64,000 nt of DNA from Pelagomonas calceolata (lineage: Eukaryota), in contig CAKKNE010000001.1 in assembly GCA_918797485.1 (NCBI GenBank), positions 1,240,001-1,304,000 of the forward strand, given 5' to 3'. The notes under the pieces are model-generated. The model ran no database searches and was not told where the DNA came from. It was given only the letters and a program-made list of their open reading frames with translations. The translations under genes and the position numbers were made by a program. How positions within the stretch are numbered: the first letter of the stretch is position 1; every line of letters starts with the position of its first letter. Below, in pieces: positions 7,834 through 61,668 of this stretch.

Positions 7834-7854
7834 GCTAGTATCGATAACGCTAGC
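7834..7854 (+). promoter_or_regulatory. GCTAG-box element, variant
   Basis: GCTAGTATCGATAACGCTAGC between divergent coronin and oxygenase genes. Confidence 0.55.
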
Positions 7855-7955
7855 ACATTATGCCAAGGTTGCCATAGTGAGCTAAATTGGACCAAAAAGC
7901 CAACAACTCTCAAGAATTAATGCACCACCACGACCACTGAACAGTGCTGGCAGCA

Positions 7956-8795
7956 ATGCACAAGCTTGCACTCCTAGCAATACTGCTCACAGCAAGCGCA
8001 GGAGACGACAGCCTCCAACAACTCGTCGAGGACCTGCGCCAAGAAGCAAGGGAGGAATTCGAAAGCATAAAGGGCATCGACGCCAGCGAACTCGACGGCT
8101 ACGTCGACGCGTTCGTCGCCGACGGCTTGTCGAGGATCACGCGGCGCGTCTCCATGGAACTCGACGACGACGGCGAGGCGCAGGCGCAGTTCGAGTGGGT
8201 GCAGCGGGAACGGCGGCCGACGGTGGTGGCGCCCTTACCGTGCCCCGACACGCACCGCTGCGGCGTTTGCGGAAGGGCGTCCTCGAGGCACGTCGCGAGT
8301 CCCTTCGAGGTCGCGCTCATCTCCAATAATGCGGAAGAAGCGGCCCCGGGCCTCTTCCACCAGCGGGGCAAGACGGCGCGCGCGCTGGAGGATGTTCAGC
8401 TGCCTGCAGTCATGAGCCTGGCACGCCGCGCCCTGACGATTACGGGAACCACATTCAACGCGTCGCTGACCCTCGCGGGGGGCCTCCTGACGCGCATCGC
8501 CGCGGAACCCGACGGCGCCCTGCAGGCGCCCTCCCAAAAACCCTACTGGGAGGCCCACGTCGACCAAGACAACAAACAAGCCTACGACTACTCGGCTTTG
8601 GTGTATTTCGAGGACGGCGGCGTCGACTTCGAGGGCGGCGCCCTGATCTTCGAGGACGGCGAGACGATCCTGCCGCGGCGCGGGCGCCTCGTCGCGTTCT
8701 CGAGCGGGCCGGAGAACGGCCACCGCGTCGCCAGGGTCGAGCGGGGCGCGCGGACGGCGCTGGCGCTCTGGTTCACGTGCGTGCAACCGGAGTGA
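7956..8795 (+). CDS. Secreted/ER 2OG-Fe(II) oxygenase (OGFOD3/prolyl hydroxylase-like)
   Basis: Signal peptide; YWEAHVD...YDYSALVY...FEGG...FSSGPENGHRV..V..G.R..LALWFT (HxD...H...R). Confidence 0.85.
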   Translation: MHKLALLAILLTASAGDDSLQQLVEDLRQEAREEFESIKGIDASELDGYVDAFVADGLSRITRRVSMELDDDGEAQAQFEWVQRERRPTVVAPLPCPDTHRCGVCGRASSRHVASPFEVALISNNAEEAAPGLFHQRGKTARALEDVQLPAVMSLARRALTITGTTFNASLTLAGGLLTRIAAEPDGALQAPSQKPYWEAHVDQDNKQAYDYSALVYFEDGGVDFEGGALIFEDGETILPRRGRLVAFSSGPENGHRVARVERGARTALALWFTCVQPE

Positions 8796-9050
8796 TGCGG
8801 CGCGTCGGCCACCGCGGAGGCCGTGTTTTTTGTACGAGGCGCTCTGGTTCATGTGCGCCGCCGCAGAGTGATTACTGGCTGTTTCGTGGAGGAACGCCGG
8901 TTGCGCGCGCCGTAGACCACGGCGCGCGTCCAAGTGCCAGGGCATCTGGAGCCAATGTTGTATAAGTTGTTTTATTGGTGAAGAATCTTCTGCCCGTCCA
9001 CTCATCAGAAGCCGTCCGTCAGGGGGGGGGGACCGGCCCGTCGCGGGCGC

Positions 9051-10346
9051 CTAGGGGAACTGGTAGCCGCCACCGAACTGGTTGCCGCCGAAGGGCGCCG
9101 CGGCCGGCGGCGGGACGTAGGGCGCCGCCGGCGGCACCGCCGGCTGCGCCGGCACGGGCGGCATCTGCTGCTGGACGACGGGCACGGCCGCCGGCACCGG
9201 CGGCGCCGGCGCTGTCATAACGGGCACGGCCGCGCCGAGCGGCGCGGCACCTTCCGGCGCCGTGACGGCCGGCGGCGCCGGCGCGGGCGCCGGCGGCATG
9301 CCGGCCCCGAGCGTCTGGAGGACAGGAGCCAAATCGGGCTCGGGCATGGCCGCCGGCGGGCCCTGGCTGCGGCGCTTGAAGGCCGGGCCGTCGGCGAGCT
9401 CGGCGGCCGCCGCGCGCTTCTCTTGCAGGGAGGGCACGAAGTCGTCGTCCTCGCTATCATCATCTTCGGGCTTCTTCTCCCAGTCCTCGTCGTCGTCCGA
9501 GTCCTTCTTCGTGTTCGACGGCGGGCGGTACTTGCGGGGTTTGGTAGGAGGCGGCGGCGTGCCCGTCGGCACCGCACCCCCGAGCGCACAATAGTTCTTG
9601 TTCACGTCATGCACCAAGTCGGCGCGCCAGCCGCCCTTCTCGAGGAACTCCTTGACCGTCGTCGCGTCCTTGTAGGCCTCGTAGCGTAAATTGCAGGCCG
9701 TGCCCGGCCGCTTCGGGTTGGTGGCGATGAATTTCACTTCTACGGTGTCCGGGCACTCGCGCGGATCAATCAGGCGGCCGGGGTGGTTGTCCGGCGGCGG
9801 CGGCGGCGCCGGCGGCTCCCGGGCTGCGGCCGTCGGCTGCGGGAGCGTCGCCATGACGGCGGCAGCCGCGTCCTCGACGTCGTCGTCGGGGACCTTGATA
9901 CTGGCCTCGACCTCGTGCAACTCCAGATCCTCCTGGTCGCCGACTAGGGCGCCGGCCGTGTACTGGACGTGGAAGAGCGCCGCGGGCTGGCCCTTGTCGT
10001 CCAGAAAGTCCGACTCCGCCGCGGACAGCCAGCCCGTGACCTTGCCCTCGCTGTAGGCCGGGCCGCCCTCTACCAAACGGATGATCTCCCTACCAATCAG
10101 CGGGTGGCCCTCCGTCTTCCACTCGTCGCCCTGGTCCGCGGGCGTGAGCGGCGCCGGCGCGACCGGCGGCGCGACGGCCGCGGCGGGCACGGGCGGGGCG
10201 ACGAAGGGCGCGGCGACGGCCGGCGGCGGCGCCTGGAAGAGCGGCGCCGGCGGCGCCACCGCGGCGACGGGCGGCGCGACGGGCGCGGCCGGCGCCTGGA
10301 GCGGCGGCTGCTGGGGGGGGAAGCCGTAGCCTCCGTACGGGTCCAT
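9051..10346 (-). CDS. Pro/Ala-rich protein with a Tudor-like domain and an NPKR...RYEAYK domain
   Basis: 431-aa ORF; W..EGHPLIGR.I.R....GKVTGWL...LFHVQY..GDQEDLELHEV; NPKRPGTACNLRYEAYKDATTVKEFLEKGGWRADLVHD. Confidence 0.75.
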   Translation of the reverse strand: MDPYGGYGFPPQQPPLQAPAAPVAPPVAAVAPPAPLFQAPPPAVAAPFVAPPVPAAAVAPPVAPAPLTPADQGDEWKTEGHPLIGREIIRLVEGGPAYSEGKVTGWLSAAESDFLDDKGQPAALFHVQYTAGALVGDQEDLELHEVEASIKVPDDDVEDAAAAVMATLPQPTAAAREPPAPPPPPDNHPGRLIDPRECPDTVEVKFIATNPKRPGTACNLRYEAYKDATTVKEFLEKGGWRADLVHDVNKNYCALGGAVPTGTPPPPTKPRKYRPPSNTKKDSDDDEDWEKKPEDDDSEDDDFVPSLQEKRAAAAELADGPAFKRRSQGPPAAMPEPDLAPVLQTLGAGMPPAPAPAPPAVTAPEGAAPLGAAVPVMTAPAPPVPAAVPVVQQQMPPVPAQPAVPPAAPYVPPPAAAPFGGNQFGGGYQFP

Positions 10347-10843: not shown

Positions 10844-11968
10844 ATGATACTCACAAATTGCCCAGTATGCGCTGCCCCTCTCCCACCTACGAGTGCCAAG
10901 CAGTGTAGCCGCTGCAAAACGCGCTACTGCGGCCCGGAGTGCCAGAAGACACACTGGGAAGAGGGCGGCCACGACAAGCTCTGCAGGAAGATAAGGAAAG
11001 GTGGCGGCGCCGAGCAGTATAATGCCAATACGAAGTATACGGAGGCCGTAGCGGTCGCGGCGGAGGCATGCGCCGACGACACTAAGGGACAGACGTGCTA
11101 CATCTGCACGCAGGCCCTCCACTGGAAAACAAAGGAGGGCCTCGTACGCGGATGCTCGTGCCGCGGGACGGCGGGCTTTGTGCACTTGTCGTGTCTGGCG
11201 GAGCAGGCGAAGATCTTGGTCGCGGGGGCTTTGGAGAATAATTTGTTCGACCAGGCGAATGAACGGTGGAAGCGGTGGCATACGTGTAGCTTGTGTGAGC
11301 AGCAGTACCACGGCGTCGTATTGTGCGCGCTCGGGTGGGCGTGCTGGAAGACGTACGTGGGCCGGCCGGAGATGGACACGGATCGGATCATGGCGATGGG
11401 GACGCTTGGGGCCGGTTTATACATAGCAAAACACCACGAGGACGCGTTGTCCGTGCAAGAGGCTGAGTTGGCTATGCTGCGGCGCCTTGGCGCATCAGAG
11501 GAGCTAATTCTCATCGCGCAGAGCAATCTTGCGACCACGTATGAGGACCTTGGGCGTAAGGAGGCCCCGTGCCTACGGCAAAAGGTTTACTCTGGACATT
11601 TGAAGCTCTACGGCGAAGAACATAAACACGCCCTTAGAGAAGCATACAACTACGCGAACGCTCTTCATGGTCTACAGCGCTTCGAAGAAACCAAGGCACT
11701 GCTGCGCAAAACCATTCCCATGGCGCAGCGCGTTCTCGGAGAGAGTCATGAACTCACGCTCAAGATACGGTCGCTTTACGCGATATCTCTCTACAAGGAC
11801 CCCGACGCCACGCTCGACGATCTCCACGAGGCCGTGAATACGCTCGAGGACACGGCTCAGAGCGCGCGGCGCGTGCTCGGTGGCGCTCATCCGATCGCAG
11901 CGGCGATTGAGCAATCCCTGCGAAAGTCGCGAACAGCCTTCGACGCCCGCGAGACAGTGAGTGCCTAA
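10844..11968 (+). CDS. zf-MYND + RINGv + TPR protein
   Basis: CPVC...CSRCKTRYCGPECQKTHW..H..LC (MYND); CYIC...GCSCRG..GFVHLSCL...CSLC (RINGv); kinesin-light-chain-type TPR ends (LGESHELT, LGGAHP). Confidence 0.88.
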   Translation: MILTNCPVCAAPLPPTSAKQCSRCKTRYCGPECQKTHWEEGGHDKLCRKIRKGGGAEQYNANTKYTEAVAVAAEACADDTKGQTCYICTQALHWKTKEGLVRGCSCRGTAGFVHLSCLAEQAKILVAGALENNLFDQANERWKRWHTCSLCEQQYHGVVLCALGWACWKTYVGRPEMDTDRIMAMGTLGAGLYIAKHHEDALSVQEAELAMLRRLGASEELILIAQSNLATTYEDLGRKEAPCLRQKVYSGHLKLYGEEHKHALREAYNYANALHGLQRFEETKALLRKTIPMAQRVLGESHELTLKIRSLYAISLYKDPDATLDDLHEAVNTLEDTAQSARRVLGGAHPIAAAIEQSLRKSRTAFDARETVSA

Positions 11969-11989
11969 AGAATAGCCACAAACAACAAA

Positions 11990-14428
11990 TCATACCCGCC
12001 CACAGACCCCCGCCATCGCCGGCACGCCGCTCGCCAGGCACGCGTCCTGGGCCACGGGGTGGTCCCACGCCGCCCGCGCGGTCAGCGGGCCCGCGGGCCG
12101 CCGGCCGTCCGGCACTTCTAATGAAGGCAGCTCCGCCTTGTCCAGCTCGGGCAGCGCCTCGAATAAACCCGAGACCAGCCGCCGCGACGCCGTCTCGTCC
12201 AGGCCCGTGACGAGGCTCTCGGCGTGCTTCGGCGCCGCGCGCGCGGCCGACGCGAACAGCTTTTGAGCCTCGCGGCGCGCGTCCGCCTCCGTCGCGGCCG
12301 CGAGTGCGCGCCGCGTCGGCTCGTCGAGGTTCCGCTCGCGCAGCGCCAACTGCTTCGCGCGCGCAAAGCGGCCCGCGCTCGAGCTCCGCGTCGGGTCGGC
12401 CAACGCGTTGACCTTCGACGCGTAGTCCGCGGCGAGGCGCGGTAGTAATTCGGGCGCCGGCGCCGCGAGCGCGACCCTTACACCCGCCGGCGGCACGCTC
12501 TCGTCGCTCACCCCAGAATCTTTGTAGAAGCCCATGGAGTACTTGCAGCCGGCGAGCGACGCCCCGAAGAGCGGCTCCGCGACGGCGTCGGCCACCAGGA
12601 GCTGCCACAGCCGCGCCGAGGCCCGCATGAAGGCGTTTCCTGAGGAGACGCGCCAGCACGGCAGGTAAAGCACGGCCCGCGCGGGCCCGTCGGCGCGCCA
12701 CTCGCGCGCCGGCCCCCGCGCGCCGCGGGGCCGCGGCACGCTCTCGACCTGTCCAGGACTTTCAGCCTTCGTCGTGCCTCTTCTCAACAAATCGCAGTAG
12801 ACGCAGGGCTGCGGCGGCCGCCACCACTTCTTGGCCGGCCGTTGCCACAACGCGTCCTCCAAATCGACGCGCGCGTAGGGGATCCTCCTACTCAAAGTCG
12901 CGGCGTCGAGCTGGATCAGCTGCGATTCGGGCCTCTGCAGGAAGGCAGTGGCTCTACATCGTTGCGGCGTCAATAGAGCAGCCAGCGCGAGCGTGGACAC
13001 GGCGACGTCGCGCGGCGGCGCGCGGAAGCGCCGGCCCGCCGCCGCGAGTCCCCTCGGATCTCTTTCGGAACGCATGTTCTCCGCTATTTCCACTGCTGTT
13101 GGGGGCCTCGGCGCGTCCCGGCAATTCCTATCAGCTAGCGCCGCGCAGTCTCGAGCAACACTTTGGATTGCCGATGGAGCGCTCGAAGCTAGTGCGGCAC
13201 ACGCGGCCAGCACGGCCGCGACGGCGTCGCGCCAGCCGTCTGTTCTAGCTAGAGGTACCCTAATCTCGAACAAGGCAAAACCCGTGTCCGCGTCGCCGAC
13301 GACTGGTTTCGCGCCCGCGTACACGGCGGGCGCGCCGGGCCGCGGCTGTAACGCGACGCCGGCTCTTTTTAAGCGAGACGCCAGCCCGCCCGGCCCGCCG
13401 TGGGCCAACGAGTGCGCGGCAACGACGTCCGGCCGTCGAGCTTTGTAAGCAGCGAACCCCCCTACTTTGTCGTAAGGTATGGACCAATGCAGCGTGACGA
13501 CATCAGCACGTCCTGGTTGCTGCTTCGAGACGATGAGATCAGGAGCACCCTGGTCCGGCAGCGGGTCCGTCGTATAGGGTTGCGGCACGGGGAAGACCCG
13601 TTGAGGCGCTTGAGGAAACGCGTTGACCACGGCGGAGGCGAGGCGATCCGCATCCACCGGCGCGACCACCGCCAAAGTAGCATCTCTCAACCCGTAGCGC
13701 TCCCGAAATAACTTGCGAGCAAAAGATGCGGCTCTATCAGCGCCATTGCCGTCCTTGTCATATTTCGGAGGTAGTAATGTATAGCGCGTCCCGGGCCCGA
13801 ATTTTGATAACGGACCAACAGATCTATCACGTAACAATTCAAGATCGAGCGCCGCTCCCGAAGGTAGGGATTGGGCCTCGGCGTCGACGCGCCTTGCTTC
13901 TCGTCGCGTCGTCGAGGCGTCGAACTTCTCCGCGGCTGTGGGCGAGACGGCCGACGACACACTTCGTAACAACGCACCGACGTACCGCGGCGCGCAGTTC
14001 GCCACATACACCGTCCTATCAAAAGCGGTGTACGCGTTCGCCACTCCGTCATAATCGATCGCCTTTTGTTCGAGGTTGCTGGCAGCCATCGTCAGGTGCT
14101 CGGTCAAGTGGGATAAACCTTCAAAGGGCTCTCGCAGCTGGCCGGCGCCCACCGTCAGCGCTAACGTCGCGTCTCTTGCTTCTGGGTCTCCCGCGACGAC
14201 TATTCTTAAACCTGAAGGTGTTGTGACGTAGCGATAATCTCGACTATCAACAAAACTCGGGTTCGTCAGGATTCTGACGAGCGGTGAGGGGAGTTCATTT
14301 GCGTTGACCTTGCTTGCTGCTGTGGCGGCGGCCGGACCTAGTAATAAGGGCCGCCGCGGGAGCTCCAGAGCCGCTGCTGTGCAGGCACTGAGCCACAGCC
14401 CTGTCCTCAGCGCCATTCGACTTGGCAT
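11990..14428 (-). CDS. M16 (insulinase/pitrilysin) family metallopeptidase-like protein with targeting peptide
   Basis: DSRDYRYV..PSGLRI, GLSHLTEH (HxxEH), NAYTAFDRTVY, LAHGGPGGLASRLK. Confidence 0.85.
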   Translation of the reverse strand: MPSRMALRTGLWLSACTAAALELPRRPLLLGPAAATAASKVNANELPSPLVRILTNPSFVDSRDYRYVTTPSGLRIVVAGDPEARDATLALTVGAGQLREPFEGLSHLTEHLTMAASNLEQKAIDYDGVANAYTAFDRTVYVANCAPRYVGALLRSVSSAVSPTAAEKFDASTTRREARRVDAEAQSLPSGAALDLELLRDRSVGPLSKFGPGTRYTLLPPKYDKDGNGADRAASFARKLFRERYGLRDATLAVVAPVDADRLASAVVNAFPQAPQRVFPVPQPYTTDPLPDQGAPDLIVSKQQPGRADVVTLHWSIPYDKVGGFAAYKARRPDVVAAHSLAHGGPGGLASRLKRAGVALQPRPGAPAVYAGAKPVVGDADTGFALFEIRVPLARTDGWRDAVAAVLAACAALASSAPSAIQSVARDCAALADRNCRDAPRPPTAVEIAENMRSERDPRGLAAAGRRFRAPPRDVAVSTLALAALLTPQRCRATAFLQRPESQLIQLDAATLSRRIPYARVDLEDALWQRPAKKWWRPPQPCVYCDLLRRGTTKAESPGQVESVPRPRGARGPAREWRADGPARAVLYLPCWRVSSGNAFMRASARLWQLLVADAVAEPLFGASLAGCKYSMGFYKDSGVSDESVPPAGVRVALAAPAPELLPRLAADYASKVNALADPTRSSSAGRFARAKQLALRERNLDEPTRRALAAATEADARREAQKLFASAARAAPKHAESLVTGLDETASRRLVSGLFEALPELDKAELPSLEVPDGRRPAGPLTARAAWDHPVAQDACLASGVPAMAGVCGRV

Positions 14429-14643
14429 TGTTGCAAGGCGTTAGGCAGTGCACGACACCATTAATGTGAGTGCCTCGAGGCATTCATCTTGCTCTGCAGC
14501 GGCAAACACACGGTGCACGAGGCAAGCACGCTGAGGCGCCAGCAGCCTCGAACTTGGGCCGGCCGCGCGACACCTAGCACGACTAGTCGCTCCCTCTACA
14601 TGTCCTTAAACGAAATTAACGTAGAATTCGCGGCGCGATGCAT

Positions 14644-14666
14644 GCTAGCGACCGTAAGACACTAGC
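14644..14666 (-). promoter_or_regulatory. GCTAG-box element
   Basis: Reverse complement GCTAGTGTCTTACGGTCGCTAGC; about 215 bp from both divergent ATGs (14428 and 14881). Confidence 0.75.
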
Positions 14667-14880
14667 AAGCCGCAAATTATTATCCGCTCCACACGGCTCT
14701 ATAGCCGTCTACGGGGCGTGCGTCGCACATCGAAGCAAGCCACTCGGGCCCTCTCGAGCGTGGGCTGGCGTGGGCGCAATTTGAAGCGTCGCCGTGCTGT
14801 CCTTTGCCCCTGAGGCTGCAGGTCACAAAAATAGACCAATAACTACGCCGCAAGGAGCGAATAGCCACAGCTCGTGAACG

Positions 14881-15723
14881 ATGAGCGACGACAACCCCTT
14901 CAGCGACCCCTCCCTGCAAGCGGCCGACCAGAGCCGGACGCAGGAGGAGCTGCCGTCCTGGGCGACGGCGCCCGCCGACGGCGCCCCACCCACGAGCTGG
15001 TCACCACCGGAGGACAATAAAAACGAAGAGGCCTGGTCCGCGCCGCCGCCCAATGCGCAACCCGACAATAGTGGAGGCGGCGTCCGCGGCGCCGCGCAAC
15101 GACTGGAACAGAAACTGCCCCAGACGCGGTCCGGCCTCATCATTTCTATGAGATTACTAAACATGGGCGTGTCCATCCTCATGGCCGCCGCGGCCATCAT
15201 CAAACTGCTGAGTTTACCAGCCTTCACCAAAGGTGTACTATGTCTCTACATCTGGTTCTTCGCGCTGCTCATATGCTGCTTCGAGACGCACCTAGCGCAA
15301 GTGTCGCGGATTATTGGCGAGAACTTCGGGTTTTTATACAACGTCAAGGGGCGGGTCACGTTCTTCATACTGGTCTCGTTTTTATGTTTCAGTATTGGAT
15401 TAATTGGCCTCATCTCCGGCGTCGGGTTACTAGTTGCGGCGGCCTACAACGCTTATGTGATTTACAAGCACCCCGACTACGAGCGGGAGATGCTCGAGAA
15501 CGATGTGGAGCAGCGGGGCCCGTCGTCCGTGTACGGGGTTGCCGGTTCTGTAGTGGCGCCGCCCGGGGCGTCGTCGGGCGGCGATTCGAGCTGGCTGGAG
15601 GGCGCCGGGGCCGCCGCGGCGCAGAACCCGGAATTAGCCGCTTCGGTCGGGTCGGCGGCCGTGGGCTGGGCGCGGAAGAACCCGGAGGCGGCGGGGAAGA
15701 TCGCGCGCTCGGCCGTCGTTTAA
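14881..15723 (+). CDS. COPI-associated/TVP15-like Golgi membrane protein
   Basis: N-terminal NPF motif, several TM helices, ENFGFLYNVKGRVTFFI signature. Confidence 0.8.
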   Translation: MSDDNPFSDPSLQAADQSRTQEELPSWATAPADGAPPTSWSPPEDNKNEEAWSAPPPNAQPDNSGGGVRGAAQRLEQKLPQTRSGLIISMRLLNMGVSILMAAAAIIKLLSLPAFTKGVLCLYIWFFALLICCFETHLAQVSRIIGENFGFLYNVKGRVTFFILVSFLCFSIGLIGLISGVGLLVAAAYNAYVIYKHPDYEREMLENDVEQRGPSSVYGVAGSVVAPPGASSGGDSSWLEGAGAAAAQNPELAASVGSAAVGWARKNPEAAGKIARSAVV

Positions 15724-15725
15724 CA

Positions 15726-16709
15726 CTACTTGTCACTTACACATTGGGGCGCGACGACCGCGGGCAGGCCTTGACGCATCTCGAAGAGATCAGGTAAAGA
15801 ATCGCCCCGCGCGGCACCAGTCAACGTGGTAGAGGCAGCAAGCAACGATGCCCCGACCCAGGCCGCATCACACGACGCGCACGGCGCCGTCAAGACGCCA
15901 GCATCTACACCTAACGCCCGGAGCTCATCCAATAATCGCGTCTCCAGGCCCGGTATCAACGACCCGCCGCCGACGACGAGGACGCGCTTCGACAGCGCCG
16001 CGCGCGCGTCGATGGGCGCCGCGCGCAGCACGCCGTGCACGAGCGCCGCGAGGCCCTCCCGGTCGTCGAACAACACCTCCGAACTGTCGCCCCGCACCCG
16101 AAAAGCGACCGAAGCGCCCTCGAACGCGACGTCGGGGCCAGAAGCCGCTTCTTTCCCGCGACACCGCACGAAGCAGAGCGACGCGACGGCGGCCCGCGCG
16201 CGCTCGAGCGTCTCATACGGAAGCTTCGCCGCCACGGCGTCAACACCAAAGCCGTCCGCGTAGGAGAGCGTCGCATCTAACAAAAAGCCGTCGACCACCG
16301 CCGCGCACCGCGTGCTGCTGCTGCCGACGTCGACGACTATTGACGTAGGGGCGTCGCCGCCGACCGCGGCGCACGCTATAGAAGGAGCGAAGGCGAGCTT
16401 CTCGGCGCCGGCGTCGTACAGGGCGTCGGCCAGCGCCCGTCGCAACGCTCGCGGTAGTGCGGCGTCCTCGACGTTGAGAACAATACGTTTTTGCGGCATC
16501 GTCAGTAGTTCTTCCGCAAATAATCGCGCCACAAACTCATCCAACGCGCCGCGCCAGGCAATCTCATTCAATCGCTCGCCGCCTTGCGCCAGCGCGCCCA
16601 ACGGGGACGGCAGTCGTACCCTTGGACATGGTTCGCCGGCGATGCCGCAGCGGACGTAGACGGCGCCCCACTCGAGCACGATGGCTGGTTTGCTTGTTGG
16701 TGCGGGCAT
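15726..16709 (-). CDS. Actin-related protein, Arp10/11 (dynactin)-like
   Basis: IVLEWG..YVRCGIAGEPCPR, VVDVGSSST, APIDAR..L...VVGGGSLIPGL..RL, AAWVGAS. Confidence 0.82.
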   Translation of the reverse strand: MPAPTSKPAIVLEWGAVYVRCGIAGEPCPRVRLPSPLGALAQGGERLNEIAWRGALDEFVARLFAEELLTMPQKRIVLNVEDAALPRALRRALADALYDAGAEKLAFAPSIACAAVGGDAPTSIVVDVGSSSTRCAAVVDGFLLDATLSYADGFGVDAVAAKLPYETLERARAAVASLCFVRCRGKEAASGPDVAFEGASVAFRVRGDSSEVLFDDREGLAALVHGVLRAAPIDARAALSKRVLVVGGGSLIPGLETRLLDELRALGVDAGVLTAPCASCDAAWVGASLLAASTTLTGAARGDSLPDLFEMRQGLPAVVAPQCVSDK

Positions 16710-16922
16710 GGTGCTGCGTCCTACGATGCGTGCGCGTTCTCTTCGCAGCGTCCGCGCTCACGCCACAGCACTCAAAAGGTGGTGCGTGTGTGCGCGCTCC
16801 TGAAGCTGTAAGCGATGGGATAGATGGCTCCGTCGCAAGAAGCGGTATCGACAGCACACGACTACGATGCGTGGCGTGTTTTACCACCCGCGCGCGGCGG
16901 CATTCGGCTTTTGGCTGCTATT

Positions 16923-16943
16923 GCAAGTGTGTTACACGCTAGC
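16923..16943 (+). promoter_or_regulatory. GCTAG-box element, variant
   Basis: GCAAGTGTGTTACACGCTAGC between divergent Arp10-like and WW genes. Confidence 0.65.
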
Positions 16944-17010
16944 TAACTCTGCGATCTGCGATGAGATCTGAGCGTAACTGCGCGATTTGCAGCCTCTCGC
17001 GGCGTAAACC

Positions 17011-17682: not shown

Positions 17683-17695
17683 CAACACACTAAAT

Positions 17696-19093: not shown

Positions 19094-19227
19094 TTTTTCA
19101 CTGCATGCGATGCTTACTCGTGCATGAACACTTGCGACTGGCTGCGGCAATGGCGGAGCGTTCGTTCTATGCCCAAAATCGCATCGCTACGCCCGTTGAC
19201 AGCGAGTTGTGATCGAAGGACAACCGG

Positions 19228-19254
19228 GCTAGCGGGGCATGTAAACACACTAGG
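19228..19254 (-). promoter_or_regulatory. GCTAG-box element, variant
   Basis: Reverse complement CCTAGTGTGTTTACATGCCCCGCTAGC between divergent gatA and NEIL3. Confidence 0.7.
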
Positions 19255-22373: not shown

Positions 22374-22547
22374 CCTGATCTTGGAAAGGATGCCTCGCTG
22401 CCGATTTATAGGGCGACGAGCTAGCGTCGCGGCTCTGGCGTCGCTATCGGATCACTGCTGAGTGCTGGAGGAACCACCGTGGGCACTCGGCAAGCACCAA
22501 CAGGCGATATATCCGGCAGGCGGCTAAAAAGGGCTCGAGAGATTAAT

Positions 22548-22572
22548 TTAAGTGTGTTACTGTTACGCTAGG
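22548..22572 (+). promoter_or_regulatory. GCTAG-box element, variant
   Basis: TTAAGTGTGTTACTGTTACGCTAGG between two divergent esterase genes. Confidence 0.55.
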
Positions 22573-22711
22573 TCAAATTATACAAAAATTCGACCAAGCA
22601 AAACTGTGTGCCGCTGCGGTAACGCATCGAGCTAGTTGCTTCCTGATTAATGACCCTCTCATTACCGATAATCGAATCCCCAAACGCCAGCCGATGCGCC
22701 GCAGCCTAGTG

Positions 22712-23932: not shown

Positions 23933-23933
<1 letters not shown>

Positions 23934-30434: not shown

Positions 30435-30459
30435 GCTAGTGTCTTACTGAGGCGCTAGC
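30435..30459 (+). promoter_or_regulatory. GCTAG-box element
   Basis: GCTAGTGTCTTACTGAGGCGCTAGC between divergent genes. Confidence 0.75.
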
Positions 30460-34005: not shown

Positions 34006-34331
34006 CGTCTGTGTGGTTAAAATCGTTGCCACAGCGTAGCACTACTGCTCTTTTACGTTCTTTCGAGTGCAGATTGGACCAGAGTGCACCTTTTCAGCGA
34101 CACTCTCGCTCTGTTGGCCAGAGCTCAGCACAAAAGCCAGAGCTCGTAGTTCGTCCTAGTATGTCTATCGACACTACCCCTCGAGCCACGCCATTTCGCG
34201 CAGCCAGCCAGCTAGGCTAGCCTGGCTCCCGCTCGGTTTCGGCATCGCGTATCCTGGTCGGTCGTCAGCGTTCAGCCCGCTTGCAGAGCCGTCGGACGGA
34301 CCGGTTTCAAACACCACGTGCTTGGGAGAGC

Positions 34332-35979: not shown

Positions 35980-36003
35980 GCTAGTGTCTTACATGCCGCT
36001 AGC
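35980..36003 (+). promoter_or_regulatory. GCTAG-box element
   Basis: GCTAGTGTCTTACATGCCGCTAGC, about 100 bp upstream of ATG 36106. Confidence 0.75.
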
Positions 36004-39343: not shown

Positions 39344-39367
39344 GCTAGCGGCATGTAAGACACTAGA
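39344..39367 (-). promoter_or_regulatory. GCTAG-box element
   Basis: Reverse complement TCTAGTGTCTTACATGCCGCTAGC (23 bp identical to the 35980 copy) between divergent eRF3 and TPS. Confidence 0.78.
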
Positions 39368-42397: not shown

Positions 42398-42606
42398 TTT
42401 TGTTCCTTTCGCTGCGTAAGTGGGGGGGTTTCGTGTACTTTCTTTCTGACTGCGTGCGCGTCGATGGCGCAACGCCCGGCCGCGACGTACTTTTACTTTG
42501 TCAGGCTCAGGCTCAGGCTTGTCAGGCTCAGGCTAATTCGTCGCGGGGTCCCCCGTACCCATCTATTGTTACGGTGCTAGGACTAGGGCTCCCGTACCCC
42601 TCTTTG

Positions 42607-42637
42607 TTTTGCTAGTGCCTTTACGACGCTAGCAAAA
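42607..42637 (+). promoter_or_regulatory. GCTAG-box element, variant with extended hairpin
   Basis: TTTTGCTAGTGCCTTTACGACGCTAGCAAAA upstream of the HAD gene. Confidence 0.65.
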
Positions 42638-43404: not shown

Positions 43405-43778
43405 TGCTCCGGCCGCCTAGTCTTTTTTACGGGACCATATCCCGTCAGCGCGCGTATGCTGGTGTAAATAATAGGCTTAAATTGGTTTACGAGCTTGTAG
43501 TGCCGGTCACGAGTGTCTGTTTTGAGATCCGTGCGGCGTATTTGACCTCCTGGCGTGAGTGCCGTATAACACATCCCGACGACGGGATATGTTAACGGTG
43601 GGAGCACTGGCGTCGAGCCGTCCCGGTCTCTACGGCGTTGCATCGCACATACAAGCTCGTAGCGCACCGCGCGTCGCCGATTCATCGGCGGCGGGCGCGT
43701 GCCGCGTTTTTCATAATTAATAGCATACCTCCTTCTAAGCCGAACCGCCCCGGGAACTCCCTCCAAACAAGGTGCCAA

Positions 43779-43798
43779 GCTAGCTGTAAGACACTAGC
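43779..43798 (-). promoter_or_regulatory. GCTAG-box element (1-nt spacer)
   Basis: Reverse complement GCTAGTGTCTTACAGCTAGC, about 70 bp upstream of ATG 43869. Confidence 0.75.
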
Positions 43799-47438: not shown

Positions 47439-47463
47439 GCTAGCGTATAACAGACACACTAGG
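47439..47463 (-). promoter_or_regulatory. GCTAG-box element, variant
   Basis: Reverse complement CCTAGTGTGTCTGTTATACGCTAGC between divergent genes. Confidence 0.6.
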
Positions 47464-49138: not shown

Positions 49139-49160
49139 ACTAATGTTTGTTTACAAGTGA

Positions 49161-49668: not shown

Positions 49669-49692
49669 TCTAGTGTCTTACAGGCCGCTAGC
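49669..49692 (+). promoter_or_regulatory. GCTAG-box element
   Basis: TCTAGTGTCTTACAGGCCGCTAGC between divergent LYRM4 and ERGIC3. Confidence 0.78.
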
Positions 49693-51920: not shown

Positions 51921-52181
51921 TGTGGCGTTTTGCTAGAACGTCTCGTTGTTTGCGTTGCTCTTGGGGAGCAGCCCTTTGCGACGCTCACGCGGCGGAGGCG
52001 TACCGCGCTGCGGCTGCGAGATCCAGAGTGCTCTCAGAGTGCAGGATGCTTGTGGTGCTTCCAGCGAGAAATGGATGTCCCACTGGCGAGAGTGCGCTCG
52101 CGCAGCCAAGTTATAAAGCAAAAAAATGTATTCTTGCGGTAAGCCAAGATCACCCCTTTTTTGCTATAGCTTAATTATCGT

Positions 52182-52204
52182 GCTAGTGTCTTACAGACGC
52201 TAGC
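52182..52204 (+). promoter_or_regulatory. GCTAG-box element
   Basis: GCTAGTGTCTTACAGACGCTAGC, about 260 bp upstream of minus-strand ATG 51920. Confidence 0.75.
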
Positions 52205-52431
52205 TTGGTAGCACCGCACCACTCATTCATTCGAAGCCGTCGGACGATCGGAAATATGGTATACTTGCGTATCAAGTCTTCAGCGTGTTGATACGGTCGC
52301 CGATTCATTCCCGACGCCGACTCAGGCCCGTGGCTCCTAAAAGGGGGTCCCAGCTGTCCAGAGGTACAAGGGGGGGCTCCGGAAGCCGGGGGCGATTTGG
52401 CGACGGGCGACTTGTGTCAGTGGTGGGGCAG

Positions 52432-53949
52432 CTAGGCGAGGAGCCCCGCGGCGAGCGCGGCGCCGAAGGCGAGCGTCTGCGCCGCGGCGCCGTCGCTAGC
52501 GAGGTTTCCACAGACGTTGTTCACTGTGGTATCAATGAGCATGAAGCACATGTACTCGATGTTCGTGTTTGTGCCGGTGACCTCCGTGTAACCAGACGAC
52601 CAGTACGACCAGCACGAATCCGCGGCGGCAGCGCCCTTTGAGTAGACGCAGCCGCCCGCGGTGTTGCAGTCTGCCTCGGCGGTCCCGCTCGCGGCAGTGA
52701 ACGCCGACTCGCAGGTGCCGGGACCGGCAGACGCCGGCTCCACGCACGTCGGGTTCGCTTCCCATCCGATGCCCTCGTGGATGGTCGGACCGAACATCGT
52801 GCACCACCCGCCGGGCTTGTGGTGGTACGCCTGGCAGCGCCCGGGGGCGATCGCGTTCTCGGCAGCGCAGCCGGCCTCGCACTCCGCCTGCGTCATCTCG
52901 CAGGCGGGCTGGTCCGTGCCGCCGCACTCTTTCTTGGTGCCATCCTCGTTGCAGCTCTTCGAGTACTTCTGGTTAGTGCTTACCTGGCCGCCCGACGAAT
53001 CCTGGCCGCGGCACGCGCCCGACTGGCCCTCTTGGTAAACGTTGTCGCAGTGGAGCGCGTCGCCCGGGTGCGGTGTCGCAGGAGTCTCCATTTTCGGCGC
53101 CGCCGTGTAGACGCACCCTGCGGCTGTGTCGCAGGCGGACTCCTCCTTGCCGCCGGCTTCGAAGTCGCGCTCGCAGCCGCAGTAGTGCCACTCCGAGCAG
53201 TCGTCGACGTGGGCGTTGCAGCACCACGCTTCCGAGTCGTCGCTATTGCACGGCGTCGCCGGGCAGCCCTCGATGTTCACGCAGCCGCTCACGCTCGTGT
53301 CGGTCCAGTTGGCGGCGCACTCTTTGTAACCAGCATGATTGCCAGCAGGAGATGCGTGCGAGTCGCCGTTGACGCAAGTCGCATCGTGGTCGTCAGGATC
53401 AATATCGAAGCACGTATAGTCCGCGTTGCCATTCCCCGCGGCGATGTGCGTCGTCGGGTGTGAGTCGCCCTCCCAGCCGTTGTCGGAGGTAGCGGTCCAC
53501 ACGGTGGTAGCGGATTTCGTCCAAGTGCCGCCCAGGTTCGTGCAGGCCTCCTCGACGCCCAGGCAGTACGTCCCGCTGTCCGCGCATGCAACACTGGCTA
53601 TCGAGCACGTGCCCTTCGCCTCGCACTTCTCTTGCGTGTCCAGCGCGGCGTCCGAACACGTCCCGGCGAGACCCGGTCCGTGGATGAGGCAGTACGCCGA
53701 CGCCACGTCGCTGGCGCCGGTCTGGTACGCGTAGCCGAGGCACGTGCTGATGCTGTCGCACTCGGTCTCGCACTCCGCTTGCGTAAGGCCCAGCTTGTAC
53801 TTGCTGTTGACCTTATCGCTACTCCCGCCGTTGCCACGGCACGCGCCGGCCTCGGCAATCGCTGTGTACTTGTCCGTGTTAATCGGGTCGGCCGCCGCTG
53901 CCGTGCCGGCCGCGAGCGCGAGGACGACGAGGGCAGCTTTGCTGGCCAT
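52432..53949 (-). CDS. Cys-rich, probably GPI-anchored surface protein with two PAN/apple-like repeats
   Basis: Signal peptide; two GACRG...N.KY...TQAECE..C...C..Y...C...GP units; C-terminal SDGAA followed by a hydrophobic tail. Confidence 0.78.
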   Translation of the reverse strand: MASKAALVVLALAAGTAAAADPINTDKYTAIAEAGACRGNGGSSDKVNSKYKLGLTQAECETECDSISTCLGYAYQTGASDVASAYCLIHGPGLAGTCSDAALDTQEKCEAKGTCSIASVACADSGTYCLGVEEACTNLGGTWTKSATTVWTATSDNGWEGDSHPTTHIAAGNGNADYTCFDIDPDDHDATCVNGDSHASPAGNHAGYKECAANWTDTSVSGCVNIEGCPATPCNSDDSEAWCCNAHVDDCSEWHYCGCERDFEAGGKEESACDTAAGCVYTAAPKMETPATPHPGDALHCDNVYQEGQSGACRGQDSSGGQVSTNQKYSKSCNEDGTKKECGGTDQPACEMTQAECEAGCAAENAIAPGRCQAYHHKPGGWCTMFGPTIHEGIGWEANPTCVEPASAGPGTCESAFTAASGTAEADCNTAGGCVYSKGAAAADSCWSYWSSGYTEVTGTNTNIEYMCFMLIDTTVNNVCGNLASDGAAAQTLAFGAALAAGLLA

Positions 53950-54456
53950 ATTTCTCTTGTTGGGGCAGCTCTTTTGGTAAATTGGGCAGCTGTTTTGGCT
54001 AGAAACAGCCGGATCGCGCATATCGGCTCCGAATTTGGCCCCCCACGTGCAGAGCTGAAGTTGATGGAATCGCGAGGACGGCTGGAGACCTGCTATTTGT
54101 ACCTCCTATTTGTAACTTTTCCCTCAGAGGCACTAGCTGGAGGGGCATTAGATATAAATATATTTATATCTATTATATTATACATATCTATTGACTCTAA
54201 GAGACGGGCGTCTATCCTGCACGTGCATGAAGTCGGAGGCCACCAGTAAATGCGCGCTTGAGTATACTGCACTGAGCAAAACAAATATATTTCAATTGCA
54301 TTTTGAAAAATAGGGTATTACGACCTTGCTCGAGCATCGAGATGCTCGTATTATAGGCCAAAACCCGAGTAACAGCTACTACAGCTCGTATTATAGGCAG
54401 CCCCCCGTCGCTTCCTGCTGTCCTACTCACCACGGGGCAGCCGCAACGCTCGTGCG

Positions 54457-55641
54457 ATGGCTCGCTGCGTCGCCACGCTCCTTAGCTGCTGCTTCGCCGC
54501 CGCCGCCGCGACACAAGGTGTCCCATTGGAAATCGTCCTGTCTGCGGTGGTTTTCGATGGCACCGCAACCATGGATCTGAATGGCCCAGACAACGACGCC
54601 GTGCAGTGCTTACGGGCCGCCATCGTGGCCGTGCTCCGAGAGGAATACAGTTCTGCGTTCGTCTCCGGTGTCACCGCGACATCCTACGTGGCGGACGGCT
54701 CCACGAACACAAAAGTGACATTTCGCGTTGCCGACAAGGGCATCAACGCGGAGTACGTTCGGGACGACCTCCTGTCCGCCGTGGTGGAACCATCCAACTC
54801 GGACTCGAAGCTGATGCTGTCGCTGGGCGACTGCTGGCCCTACGACAAGGTCGACGCGGAGGCGGCGAGTCACGTCCTACAGACCGAGACGTACCGCCGC
54901 GCCGGCTTCGCCGACGTGGGCGCCGTGGTCTCGAGCGCGGTCGTCATGGACAGATTTACCGCGTCCTACTTCAACGCAGACGCGGTCTCAGTGGCGCAAT
55001 TTGGCGTCGTCGTCGCGGACGTCCTGCGCGCGGCGACGGTCCAGATCGACAACGTCGTGGCCGTGAATTTCTACGGTCTGGACGAAGGGAATGATGGTGT
55101 AGACGCCATACATTCGGGGACCGTAGCCCGAGGTTCGGTCATCCACTTCGACGTGGCCATTCACTACTGGCCTGCCGGCGCGACCGTTTTGGAGACGCCG
55201 GAGGCCATCGCCCAGGCGCTGCTCGACGCCCTGGTCGCCCCAACGCCGACAGCGTTCCAGAAAGCGCTCGATATCTACGGAACGGACCCGCAATTCTGCG
55301 ACGGCTGTGTCCTCTCTTCGGGAGTTCTGAACGTGGCCGCGTCCCAATTTTATATCGACGAAGTCACAATGGACGGGTCGCACGCGGTCACCTCGCCGCC
55401 CGTCCCCTGCACAGCGAACTGCGGCGGCCGCGACGGCGACGACGGACTGGACGAGGGCGAGGCCGCGGCCGTGGCGATCTTCGTCATCCTCGCCGTCGTC
55501 GGCGTCGCCGGCCTGATCTTCTGGCTCTACCGCAGCAACAAGCTCCGGGAGTGCTGTCCCTCCGAGGAGGTCGAGGCCAGCGCCGGTGAGCTCGAGCTCG
55601 ACAAGGTCTCCTCCTCCGCGACAAAGACGGAGATGGTGTAG
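54457..55641 (+). CDS. Type I membrane protein of unknown function
   Basis: Signal peptide, two similar ectodomain halves (V.SAVV.D), TM helix AVAIFVILAVVGVAGLIFWL, short cytoplasmic tail. Confidence 0.75.
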   Translation: MARCVATLLSCCFAAAAATQGVPLEIVLSAVVFDGTATMDLNGPDNDAVQCLRAAIVAVLREEYSSAFVSGVTATSYVADGSTNTKVTFRVADKGINAEYVRDDLLSAVVEPSNSDSKLMLSLGDCWPYDKVDAEAASHVLQTETYRRAGFADVGAVVSSAVVMDRFTASYFNADAVSVAQFGVVVADVLRAATVQIDNVVAVNFYGLDEGNDGVDAIHSGTVARGSVIHFDVAIHYWPAGATVLETPEAIAQALLDALVAPTPTAFQKALDIYGTDPQFCDGCVLSSGVLNVAASQFYIDEVTMDGSHAVTSPPVPCTANCGGRDGDDGLDEGEAAAVAIFVILAVVGVAGLIFWLYRSNKLRECCPSEEVEASAGELELDKVSSSATKTEMV

Positions 55642-55679: not shown

Positions 55680-56190
55680 TTGTAAAATGTTGTCCGACGC
55701 CAAGTCATCTACTAGTACGGTATGGGGACTTGTTCCTCGGAGTGTGGAACTTGGCGACATATACCAAGACGAGGTGCTCGACCATCATACGAAGAATCGT
55801 ATGGAATTAACGCAAAATCATTTTGATTAATTGACTTATAAGACTCTTTCATTTTCTCAGAAAACTCATCACATGTCTCATGAATGTCCGAACAACCTCG
55901 CGTACAACAAAATGTCCAAGAAAATGCTTTTAATTTTGCAACGTAGACAAACATGTGGGGGTACTCTTTGGATATCTTCGCTATTCCACGTTGACCATCT
56001 AGATAACAACAGTCGATGTCGTCGGGAAGATTCTGCAAAGTTTCTTCGTCGTTAACGTTACCGTATACTAACTTCGGTTTAGGAGTCAAATCCGGCGCGT
56101 TCCATTTAATATGTTCTCGGAGGCTAAAAAACCCGTTATGAATGCCTCGGGAGGCGCGGTCTCGACGCGGCAGGATAAAATAGGAACCGG
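55680..56190 (-). other. Low-GC island containing an orphan Cys-containing ORF (55712..56203, no clear ATG)
   Basis: Visibly AT-rich relative to the flanks; open minus-strand frame of about 150 codons. Confidence 0.45.
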
Positions 56191-56196
56191 ACCTAG

Positions 56197-56583
56197 TTAG
56201 CATATCGCCCCCGCCAATAACCTCCTGTCGCCCTCGGGGAGCCGCGCGGCCGCCGCCGCGAGCGCGCGCCAGCCCTCGGGCTCGGCGATGAACGTCTTGT
56301 GGTAGACGTAGACGAAGAGCGCCATGATGAACTCGCAGTCCACGCGATCCGTGACGCCGCCGTGGCCCGGGATCAAAGAGTCGAAGTCCTTCACCTCGTA
56401 CGCGCGCTTGATCGCCGAGGCCAGGAAGCCGCCGAACGGCGCGACGACCGACGCGAAGAGCCCGAAGACCACGGCGTGGAGCTGGATCGGGCTCACATCA
56501 TGTAAAGTGATGAAACCGAGCTTCATCTCGCGCTGCGTCCGGAAGACGGCCGCCGGCTCGCACGCGAGCGGCTCGTGGAAGCT
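56197..56583 (-). pseudogene. 5'-truncated phosphatidate cytidylyltransferase (CDP-DAG synthase) fragment
   Basis: PIQLHA..GLFASVVAPFGGFLASAIKRAY.VKDFDSLIPGHGGVTDRVDC signature; no room upstream for the missing N-terminal majority. Confidence 0.75.
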
Positions 56584-59052: not shown

Positions 59053-59076
59053 GCTAGTGTGTTACATTACGCTAGC
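59053..59076 (+). promoter_or_regulatory. GCTAG-box element
   Basis: GCTAGTGTGTTACATTACGCTAGC between divergent TPP1 and TIM-barrel genes. Confidence 0.75.
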
Positions 59077-59999: not shown

Positions 60000-60019
60000 T
60001 TTTGTAATTGTGACAAAAA

Positions 60020-61474
60020 TTACCAGAGCAACAACATCCTCCCTTCGCGCGACGGCGGGGCCGTCGGGTCCCTCAAAATACGCGGGACGGGCCCGTAGAG
60101 CGCCGCCAGGCAGGCTTGCGCCTCGGCGTTTCCGCTTCGCGCGAAGAAGCCGGCCGCGGCCGAGGGGTCCGGCACGAGCCCCGGCGCGCCCAGGAACAAG
60201 CGCCCGAGGGCGCAGTACGCCACCGCCGCGCCACCGTTCGCCACGGCGCGCCGCAGAAGCTTCAGCGCCTCGCGCGAGGACGACGCCGTCTTCGCCAGGT
60301 CCACGCACGCGGCCGCGTGGCCCGACGCCGCGGCCATGGCGAGGTATCTGTCTGATTCGCCGGCGAGGTACAGAGAGTACGCACTCGACGCGTCGCCCGC
60401 GGAAGCACCTTTCTTGAGCCAGCGCGTCGCGGCGGCCCGATCCTCGCGGACGCCCTCGCCTCTCATCAGACACCGCGCGTAGTAGCGGCAGGCGTTGCCC
60501 TTGCCTCTTTGAGCCGCCTCGCGCCAGCACGCCGCGGCACCCGCGAGGTCGCCGGAGTTGTACCTTAACACGCCCACGTTTAGCATAGCGTCGGCCGAGC
60601 CAGCCGTGGCTGCGCGCTCGTGGCCGTCGGCGGCGCGTTGCGCGAGCTCCGCGGCCTTCAGCTCGAGGGCCTCGGCCGCCGCGAAGCCACCGCGGCCTCG
60701 TTCCGCGCGGGCCGCCTCCGCCGTGCGTGCCGCCTCGCTGGCGTCCCGGCTGGCCACGTTGTAGAGCGCGTCGGCCTCGCCGCGGTCCGCCGCCTCCTTG
60801 TGCCACGGCGGGATCGTCGACGTTCGTCTACGTCGAAAACGGTGCGCACGCGGCGTGAACCACAATACCAGAGAGTAGCGCGCCCCGCTGAACACGCGGA
60901 CGCCGTGGCGCAGGTCGTGGCCGTGGCAGAACGCGTCTCCCACGTCCAGTGACGCGTAGCGCGCCGAGGCCGCGTCGGAGGTGGGTTGCGCGTAATAGCC
61001 GCCGACGTAGTCGTCCGGGGCGCAGAGCGAGACGACGACGGTGGCAGTGGCGTGCGCGTCGAAGTGCGCGGGGTGCTCCCGTCGTTCCGTCGGCAGATAA
61101 CGCCGTATCAGTGCTTGCGAGAGCTCCAGACTGGAGCAGTCGAAGCGCTTCCGCAGGTACGGCAGCAGTCTTTCCGTCACGACCGGCTCGAGCACGCGGC
61201 AGACGGACGTCGCGACGGGCTGGCCGCCGTCGAACACGGCACACTCGAACGTCGGCAGGCGGTCGACGGTGTCCGGGTCGCGCGCGAACTGCGCGGTCGG
61301 GTCGCTTTCTGCTAACCGTCGCACGAGCGTCGCCTGGTCCCGGGAGAGCAGGCGCGGTAGGAGGTAGGCGCGCTTCGGCAGGCGCGCGCGCCGCTCATGC
61401 ATGCCGTCCACACATGCCGGCGCGTCGAAGGCGATGCGCGGCAGCGACTCGGTTTTTGCTGGACTGCTGGACAT
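60020..61474 (-). CDS. 2OG-Fe(II) oxygenase (lysyl-hydroxylase-like) fused to Sel1 repeats
   Basis: DTVD.LPTFE, IRRY...RREHPAHFD, HGV.V.SG.RYSLVLWF; Sel1 units (AMLNVGVL, GEGVRED..AA..WL). Confidence 0.82.
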   Translation of the reverse strand: MSSSPAKTESLPRIAFDAPACVDGMHERRARLPKRAYLLPRLLSRDQATLVRRLAESDPTAQFARDPDTVDRLPTFECAVFDGGQPVATSVCRVLEPVVTERLLPYLRKRFDCSSLELSQALIRRYLPTERREHPAHFDAHATATVVVSLCAPDDYVGGYYAQPTSDAASARYASLDVGDAFCHGHDLRHGVRVFSGARYSLVLWFTPRAHRFRRRRTSTIPPWHKEAADRGEADALYNVASRDASEAARTAEAARAERGRGGFAAAEALELKAAELAQRAADGHERAATAGSADAMLNVGVLRYNSGDLAGAAACWREAAQRGKGNACRYYARCLMRGEGVREDRAAATRWLKKGASAGDASSAYSLYLAGESDRYLAMAAASGHAAACVDLAKTASSSREALKLLRRAVANGGAAVAYCALGRLFLGAPGLVPDPSAAAGFFARSGNAEAQACLAALYGPVPRILRDPTAPPSREGRMLLLW

Positions 61475-61645
61475 CCTCCTGGTGCTCCCGGCAGTAAGCA
61501 GTAAGGCGTCTCTGTCCCCACTGCAAAACCAGTGCAATTCGTTTGGCACGCGTTTAGCTACAAACTTCTGGAACGCAGCAGTAATGGGGCTGCCTCTGCG
61601 GTCTAATACCTTGGAGCTCGAACGATCGCGAGAGGCTGCCTGCTT

Positions 61646-61668
61646 GCTAGTGTCTTACATGCGCTAGC
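61646..61668 (+). promoter_or_regulatory. GCTAG-box element
   Basis: GCTAGTGTCTTACATGCGCTAGC between divergent oxygenase and kinase genes. Confidence 0.78.

Follow-up and report, generated by a model that had tools for sequence, protein, structure and literature searches.

Why does the same bipartite, palindrome-like sequence of about 24 bp recur between neighbouring genes of Pelagomonas calceolata, a small open-ocean alga of a cosmopolitan group, and what does it do there? The window, a 64-kb stretch of contig CAKKNE010000001.1, had been read by eye in a first-pass annotation, which placed the sequence, here called box A, between functionally unrelated genes, a view with which the gene identities agree. 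Box A precedes between about half and two thirds of the examined genes and has a density of about 1 per 4 kb.

A bipartite model of the box, trained on metagenome loci only, i.e., on sequence outside the window, found 15 sites at score ≥13 in the window, against 0.1 per Markov-simulated window, besides a borderline site at 7834 with score 12.8. All 15 main sites of the first-pass annotation were found again, and its split into 11 divergent and 4 tandem sites is correct. The exact 12-mer CTAGTGTCTTAC has 8 occurrences in the window, 5 on the plus and 3 on the minus strand, where the annotation had put them, its numbers giving the preceding base or the far end of the element. With at most one mismatch, GCTAGTGTSTTAC has 10 matches in the window against 0.06 expected, and at least 10 were reached in 0 of 100 shuffles. 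Among the weak sites once proposed, the one at 34155 is probably real (score 15.5), and those near 4907, 10540 and 54125, with bipartite scores below 5, were rejected. The copies of box A in the window are as follows:

7834..7854, plus strand: borderline copy, divergent gap between coronin and 2OG-Fe oxygenase genes, score 12.8
14644..14666, minus strand: divergent gap, score 36.4
16923..16943, plus strand: divergent gap, score 25.8
19228..19254, minus strand: copy with a long spacer, divergent gap, score 20.6
22548..22572, plus strand: copy midway between two divergent RNA starts about 85 bp apart, score 17.9
30435..30459, plus strand: divergent gap, score 34.0
34155..34178, plus strand: weak copy, divergent gap, score 15.5
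35980..36003, plus strand: tandem gap, RNA of the upstream gene not over the box, score 38.0
39344..39367, minus strand: divergent gap between eRF3-like and trehalose-phosphate synthase genes, score 37.1
42611..42633, plus strand: tandem gap, score 31.3
43779..43798, minus strand: copy with a 1-nt spacer, tandem gap, score 22.4
47439..47463, minus strand: divergent gap, score 21.1
49669..49692, plus strand: divergent gap, score 39.0
52182..52204, plus strand: tandem gap, score 37.6
59053..59076, plus strand: divergent gap, score 37.3
61646..61668, plus strand: divergent gap, score 34.7

Within the window, the box occupies 12 of 17 divergent gaps, 4 tandem gaps and 0 of 16 convergent gaps, and none was found in coding DNA, as the annotation had noted. 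As a stand-in for genome-wide counts, we used at least 121 metagenome loci of the same lineage (about 310 kb), with genes called by a coding model built in this analysis; L001 and L123-L132 were left out of the bipartite model and the gap counts, and L001, L124 and L128-L132 of the flank counts. In unselected gaps of the loci among the matches listed, sites with score ≥20 lie in 9 of 20 divergent, 6 of 18 long tandem and 0 of 47 convergent gaps, which is far from the equal frequency in convergent gaps that the annotation had named as telling against its reading. Joined with the window, unselected convergent gaps carry the box in 0 of 63 cases; these gaps are short, about 150-175 bp against 480-490 bp. 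Three sites scoring ≥20 do lie inside two long gaps called convergent (L018 and L029), where genes have possibly been missed. None of 162 sites falls in predicted coding DNA (244 kb, loci among the matches listed). The claim that almost every gap bears a box proved too strong, since a site is missing from 5 of 17 divergent gaps of the window and, elsewhere, from 10 of 20 unselected ones.

The position of the box relative to genes is specific. Sides facing a gene 5' end make up 172 of the 231 assignable ones, the other 59 facing a 3' end (p=5e-14), and they divide into 89 by the left and 83 by the right arm, without orientation bias. The distance to 5' ends is tighter than that to 3' ends: from the box edge to the most upstream in-frame ATG, the median is 172 bp and the 5th-95th percentile range 66-316 bp (n=149 sides), close to the 60-350 bp estimated by eye. 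Viral contigs gave 1 exact match, on a contig of 41% GC and taken as chance, and 0 matches to a second pattern. Prokaryote genomes gave 10, which we read as chimeric contigs or chance because the five genomes searched hold one copy each and because, in L123, L127 and L131, the copy lies among eukaryote-like ORFs adjoining bacterial or archaeal ones. In this sense, the box also served as a lineage marker, by picking out pieces that look eukaryotic in genome bins of prokaryotes.

RNA 5' ends keep to a narrow range of distances from the box. The RNA comes from one sample of ordinary polyA reads, in which pile-ups only approximate start sites, and the clusters near the box are:

14692..14704, plus strand: COPI-associated gene, cluster at 26-38 bp, in three runs of the one sample
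22509..22515, minus strand: leftward gene, cluster at 33-39 bp
22597..22598, plus strand: rightward gene, cluster at 25-26 bp
42671, plus strand: RNA 5'-end pile-up 38 bp from the box, in both runs
49640, minus strand: LYR gene, RNA 5'-end pile-up at 29 bp, in both runs

Five of the six clusters upstream of a start codon thus lie 25-39 bp from a box, on either side, a range whose chance of being so narrow is about 1e-4, a post hoc figure. In the stretches examined, 5 of 18 box-adjoining gene starts have a listed cluster, and 4 of the 10 listed clusters lie within ORFs. The box at 22548..22572 has an RNA start on each side. In the tandem gap holding the box at 35980..36003, run X24 has 0 reads at 35994, where the bin mean is 19. 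The gene at 54457 is expressed from RNA starts at 54333 and 54357 that lack a box, which shows that some promoters do without it. Since box A lies outside the mapped RNAs and upstream of their starts, it is a central or proximal element, not an initiator; no clear initiator k-mer appeared in the profiles taken outward from it. TTTTG-type tracts lie within 25 bp of the box in 30 of 158 cases, against 7.5.

Around the box, a CG-poor zone of about ±170 bp is followed by a CG peak 280-300 bp from the edge, both fixed whatever the distance to the ATG (0.18, 0.19 and 0.17), in windows picked after the profile had been seen. This profile is a sequence proxy for a nucleosome-depleted region, the background being the linker-methylation result of Huff and Zilberman (2014) as relayed in an excerpt of PMC5728721. 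The genome-wide CG autocorrelation showed no nucleosome periodicity.

The annotation had pictured two half-sites around a free spacer of 1-6 nt, bound by a dimeric factor or extruded as a hairpin. The spacer has a consensus of its own, A(G/T)G(C/A)C, i.e., AGGCC, with a mode of 5 nt; 80 of 137 exact matches, about six of which are chance bacterial or viral ones, have 5 nt, and 38 have 4 nt. Variation is position-specific: CTAG is nearly fixed, the edges are soft, and the left flank bears a soft GCTT. Both the middle (TTAC, AGGCC) and the flanks are under constraint and lack symmetry, which agrees poorly with a simple symmetric dimer around a free spacer. Inverted repeats of 6-9 bp form the arms, and on one strand the stem could be lengthened by G-U pairs, which would suit a DNA hairpin or cruciform, or an RNA stem, rather than a sequence read-out. 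We hold such a structure to be highly improbable because the arms do not covary, with complementarity as expected for independent columns and 1 of 31 deviating arm pairs still complementary, and because a T/G mismatch between them is kept in 158 of 163 sites. The predicted DNA hairpins are also weak (-0.6 to -8 kcal/mol), the box lies outside mapped RNAs without orientation bias, and an Rfam search of the window and 18 loci gave no match.

The box is conserved between lineages. In the orthologous pair L010/L028, its core is identical at 19 of 19 positions, with protein identity of 95-97% and an identity of 0.61-0.62 at 210 four-fold sites, and a second pair, L009/L084, is less diverged (0.84-0.91 on 55 four-fold sites), both pairs having been selected by both members carrying the motif. 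The DNA contigs of X12 (organism B) held 0 differing letters and so gave no conservation signal. This survival of the core at a four-fold identity of 0.61 bears on the idea that box A goes back to a transposable element that inserted in promoters, as its relic end or footprint, and was maybe later recruited as a promoter element, which we regard as unlikely. In favor of this idea, about 24 bp would be a long site for a single factor, the spacer follows a consensus, the two CTAG can be read as a duplicated target, and some boxes stand in close pairs (7 pairs <120 bp apart, loci among the matches listed). Besides, a second box of about 40 bp, box B, accompanies about 8% of box A copies, almost always on the side without a gene start, and could be leftover element DNA; each of its 13 matches, 7 of which are seeds of the box B model, has a box A of the same orientation 2-50 bp away. 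In the window, pieces of a repeat C flank two tandem-gap boxes, each on the side away from the promoter:

42564..42590, plus strand: truncated copy of the repeat
43661..43709, plus strand: internal piece of the repeat

The 159 sites show no excess of target-site duplications over shuffled pairs for k=3-8 (at k=4, 19 of 159 against 17.1 ± 3.7), in agreement with the annotation, so a young MITE is unlikely. Orphan halves are few (10 of 157 left 9-mers, 3 of these cut by contig ends), the constraint is position-specific with asymmetric flanks, and box A is missing from the ends of the DNA transposon in the window. The flanks, once called unrelated, indeed mostly share nothing, the soft GCTT on the left and box B beside 13 copies being what that description left out. 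A purely neutral relic is unlikely, and an ancient element origin of the box is possible.

If box A were mainly a chromatin boundary, insulator or roadblock between transcription units, the RNA-start distance would follow passively from the barrier. The CG peak phased on the box and the upstream RNA that does not cover it in one tandem gap agree with this, as does BEAF32, an insulator found mostly between head-to-head pairs according to the excerpt of PMC12302907 used here. The box is absent, however, from convergent gaps (0 of 63 unselected), where a transcription barrier would be most useful, and its spacing to 5' ends varies less than that to 3' ends, which leaves this reading distinctly unlikely; it overlaps with the promoter reading, the sole difference being whether the factor activates. 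A replication origin or origin-licensing site, in turn, would be intergenic and orientation-independent with T-tracts nearby, as the box is, and origins often share promoter nucleosome-free regions. Still, an origin would leave the fixed distance to RNA starts without reason, and sequence-defined yeast origins are far sparser than about 1 per 4 kb, such that we consider it very improbable.

Box A is thus probably what the annotation had offered as one of its options, a lineage-specific general promoter element, conserved and orientation-independent, upstream of many gene starts: it faces 5' ends, and RNA starts lie in a narrow range on both sides. We infer that it is likely the site of one abundant sequence-specific factor, which would maintain an open promoter in which transcription can start at 25-40 bp from either edge of the box. 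Since the spacer varies, this factor would have two contact modules on a flexible link; it would clear and phase nucleosomes and may be needed for transcription where the box occurs. In a divergent gap, one box would serve both genes, and in a tandem gap, as the weakest step, box B may damp the unused direction. A bolder version, in which one hard-wired 24-bp element drives most genes and alone sets starts 25-40 bp both ways, the factor is possibly transposon-derived, the second box shuts the unused tandem direction, and the two-word grammar is unlike described eukaryotic core promoters, is tentative and on balance doubtful.

A single long motif, present in roughly half or more of the promoter gaps, would account for the sharing of short divergent gaps in a compact genome. 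The box is a direct bait for finding its factor and a candidate minimal two-way promoter for genetic tools, and with it one can test whether one element is enough to fix the two start sites as well as the chromatin phase. The literature searched yielded no description of the box and no promoter element described for a pelagophyte; a repeat library in the supplements of the bioRxiv genome paper could list the sequence.

Among known systems, the consensus sequences of yeast Rap1, Reb1 and Abf1 differ from box A, and the Drosophila BEAF32 and DREF sites are of another lineage and another sequence. A BEAF32-like insulator, as excerpted, shares only the head-to-head position with it. According to the part of PMC6602560 consulted, the three yeast proteins are sequence-specific promoter factors that displace nucleosomes, and Rap1 keeps divergent transcription from initiating within about 50 bp of where it binds, a model for the possible role of box B. 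Rap1 sites, however, are located several hundred bp upstream of coding starts, and starts close to them are repressed, whereas here starts are seen at 25-39 bp from the box. Among stramenopile promoter motifs, those best described in the literature searched are the oomycete INR, FPR and DPEP. In the excerpt of PMC3599244, they are 7-16 bp long, have a forward bias of 1.8-5.9 fold, lie at the start or downstream of it, and occur in 7-18% of promoters. Box A is upstream, without orientation bias and more frequent, and it matches YCAYTYY, MWTTTNC and SAASMMS as excerpted neither in sequence nor in bias or start-site position. Among the oomycete factor specificities in the portion of PMC11267843 seen, the one CTAG-containing site, HSF TTCTAGAA, does not match box A. 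The vertebrate CGCG element (TCTCGCGAGA), unrelated to the box consensus in sequence, is described in the sections of PMC6192621 available as palindromic, driving divergent transcription and located in a nucleosome-depleted region, with the sense and antisense starts no more than about 50 bp away. The likeness lies in close starts on both sides of an arm-palindromic box, here from small numbers in one RNA sample. As those sections present it, the CGCG element is 10 bp, fixed, perfectly palindromic and confined to a subset of CpG-island promoters, whereas box A is about 24 bp, asymmetric, variable in its spacer and present in roughly half or more of the promoter gaps examined.

We consider the box (box A), a bipartite palindromic GCTAG element of about 24 bp found upstream of many genes, to be a real general promoter element, probably undescribed so far. 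The first-pass annotation had claimed eight copies of its exact 12-mer in the window, and eight were found; a box 13-mer with one mismatch allowed occurs 10 times against 0.06 expected. Scanning metagenome contigs for the box pattern returned at least 124 stretches, which were kept as 121 loci of 0.54-0.74 GC (cited by L handles). From these loci and the window, a model of two blocks separated by a variable gap was built; it gave 174 matches at a score of 13 or more vs 4 on reversed sequence. Retrained on the loci alone, it recovered 15 window sites at that threshold vs 0.1 per simulated window, with an additional site at 7834 scoring 12.8, a check that is just partly independent because the loci were first chosen using the window's pattern.

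The box consists of the core GCTAGTGTCTTAC, a spacer of mostly 5 or 4 nt with the consensus A(G/T)G(C/A)C, and GCTAGC, and its left flank tapers off into GCTT (T 0.80, T 0.71, C 0.50, G 0.56); on the right, T follows at a frequency of 0.57. The box thus has two inverted half-sites of ~9 bp that differ at one fixed position, and a constrained asymmetric middle in which length changes of 1-3 bp are tolerated. Lone half-sites are rare, no covariation was found between the arms, and flanking duplications around the box do not exceed chance level. Closely spaced pairs of the box were seen at seven loci (L019 1247-1301, L121 272-325, L053, L105, L116, L027 and L092), some standing back to back with few bp between.

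The window is 63.4% GC, rich in CG and densely packed with genes, including eukaryotic genes for coronin, an eRF3-like GTPase, ERGIC and Nse4; the closest named species for the coronin is Aureococcus anophagefferens, at 70% identity. For Pelagomonas calceolata, the genome paper (10.1101/2021.10.25.465678) gives a GC content of 63%, introner elements and 16,667 genes, with six chromosomes. The host of the window is taken to be a pelagophyte, probably this species. Segmenting the window and the loci with a 3-periodic coding model placed the box in 12 of 17 divergent window gaps, 4 tandem gaps and none of 16 convergent gaps, and at about 28 of 42 window gene starts, as counted from the gap table. 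Among locus gaps that played no role in locus selection, strong sites (score of 20 or more) occur in 9/20 divergent, 6/18 long tandem and 0/47 convergent gaps; at 16 or more, the counts are 10, 7 and 1, together with two coding matches, near noise. None of 162 strong sites falls in coding DNA, across 244 kb, and two long gaps called convergent contain three strong sites, each gap having a seed match, the occurrence through which its locus was picked. Gene 5' ends are faced by 172 of 231 assignable box sides, divided between the arms as 89 vs 83. A multi-copy MYND/RINGv/TPR gene family (window 10844-11968; L002, L022, L043, L065, L110; 57-67% protein identity) keeps the box upstream in some paralogs, the window copy being without it.

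In two loci with the same gene pair, L010 and L028, the proteins are 95-97% identical and identity at four-fold sites is 0.61-0.62; both retain the 19-base box core at equal position and orientation, the nearest 60 alignment columns being 47-60% identical. In a less diverged pair, L009 and L084, the box is likewise conserved, with a spacer of 5 vs 4. Since it was the motif that led to both pairs, they support selection without measuring it.

For RNA, stranded polyA reads of a single sample were mapped on window 14000-23400 and 35600-54600, with pile-up counts covering 22 of 27 and 16 of 20 table rows. The 5'-side pile-ups among those listed form 10 clusters, 4 inside ORFs and 6 preceding a start codon. 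Five of these six are close to a box, their distances from its edge being 26-38, 25-26, 33-39, 38 and 29 bp, and 13 of 18 box-adjacent gene starts have no cluster among those listed. The box at 22548 sits midway between divergent RNA starts ~85 bp apart, and the box at 35980 has next to no coverage from reads of its own locus. The sixth upstream cluster, 54333/54357, lacks a box, and the stretch upstream of it is AT-rich. Its divergent gap (54021-54457) is AT-rich, with a duplicated 14-mer close to these RNA starts; in the RNA runs, expression is seen for the rightward gene, the leftward one being nearly silent. This box-less gap is possibly a second promoter class.

Moving away from the box towards genes, CG is infrequent for the first ~160 bp, apart from a slight increase at 100-110, and reaches its maximum at 280-300 bp. 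This peak keeps its position across three ATG-distance classes and three subsets, and is flatter if anchored on the ATG (p=2e-7, windows chosen after seeing the profile); no general CG periodicity was seen. In several marine algae, methylation is confined to linkers, according to PMC5728721 citing Huff and Zilberman 2014, so a CG peak anchored on the box could reflect a phased linker. In the simplest account, a single abundant factor, its two DNA-reading modules linked, would recognise the box and occupy it in the middle of a short open stretch, presumably cleared of nucleosomes; transcription would initiate at a fixed distance on whichever side bears a gene, and would need the box. Of the features behind this account, the position, symmetry, spacing and conservation of the box are observed.

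Some box copies have neighbouring elements, listed here with others from the window.

Neighbouring and other elements
Box B, companion box: L010, L018, L026, L027, L039, L055, L063, L077, L102, L105, L116, L122, L006
Repeat C: window 42564-42590 and 43661-43760; L026, L052, L063, L088, L093, L094
Window 25695-27718: element resembling a DNA transposon, with inverted ends of 23 nt (91%)
Window 26020-27603, minus strand: 527-aa ORF in that element, low GC3, no Pfam match
Window 38116-38297, 40806-40899, 50790-50905: spliced introns

Box B (~40 bp, core TAAACGCGGGAGCCC; 13 found, 7 of these being model seeds, none in the window) always follows the right arm of box A at a distance of 2-50 bp, in the same orientation and nearly always on the side that faces a gene 3' end. 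It occurs on 8/31 right-arm sides facing a gene 3' end vs 1/83 where a 5' end is faced (post hoc p=1e-4). Box B may act to limit direction, or it may be DNA left over from a common ancestor. The younger repeat C, with two pieces in the window, is on 3'-facing sides in 5/5 assignable cases. It spans 90-170 bp, with one sharp end like the right part of box A and the other truncated, sometimes in tandem duplicate, on the non-promoter side of boxes. Past the right arm of box A, L040 and L070, otherwise unrelated, have a nearly identical non-coding sequence of ~150 bp, for which Rfam gave no match. By eye, the 527-aa ORF looks like a DDE transposase. The introns at 40806-40899 and 50790-50905 are repeat-like and similar to introner elements, and they draw reads that come from many other loci; sequence similar to them forms the end of an ORF at ~25040. 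The ORF at 55712-56203 has low GC3 (0.40) and no Pfam match, within a 49% GC patch. In prokaryotic genome bins, eukaryote-like segments with the box adjoin bacterial/archaeal genes (L123, L127, L131), which suggests chimeric assemblies.

No description of the box was found among the matches listed from freely accessible main-text literature; a query with its sequence gave, among the matches listed, unrelated subjects only, by title. The words "motif" and "promoter" are absent from the main text of the genome paper (10.1101/2021.10.25.465678), as is "motif" from a Hi-C preprint covering Pelagomonas calceolata.

The box belongs to a known functional kind, its length and reach being unusual. To our knowledge, it does not match the yeast and fly consensus sequences. 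It differs in sequence from the CGCG consensus and from oomycete core elements. It would function like the vertebrate CGCG element and has traits in common with yeast general regulatory factors and with BEAF32 sites.
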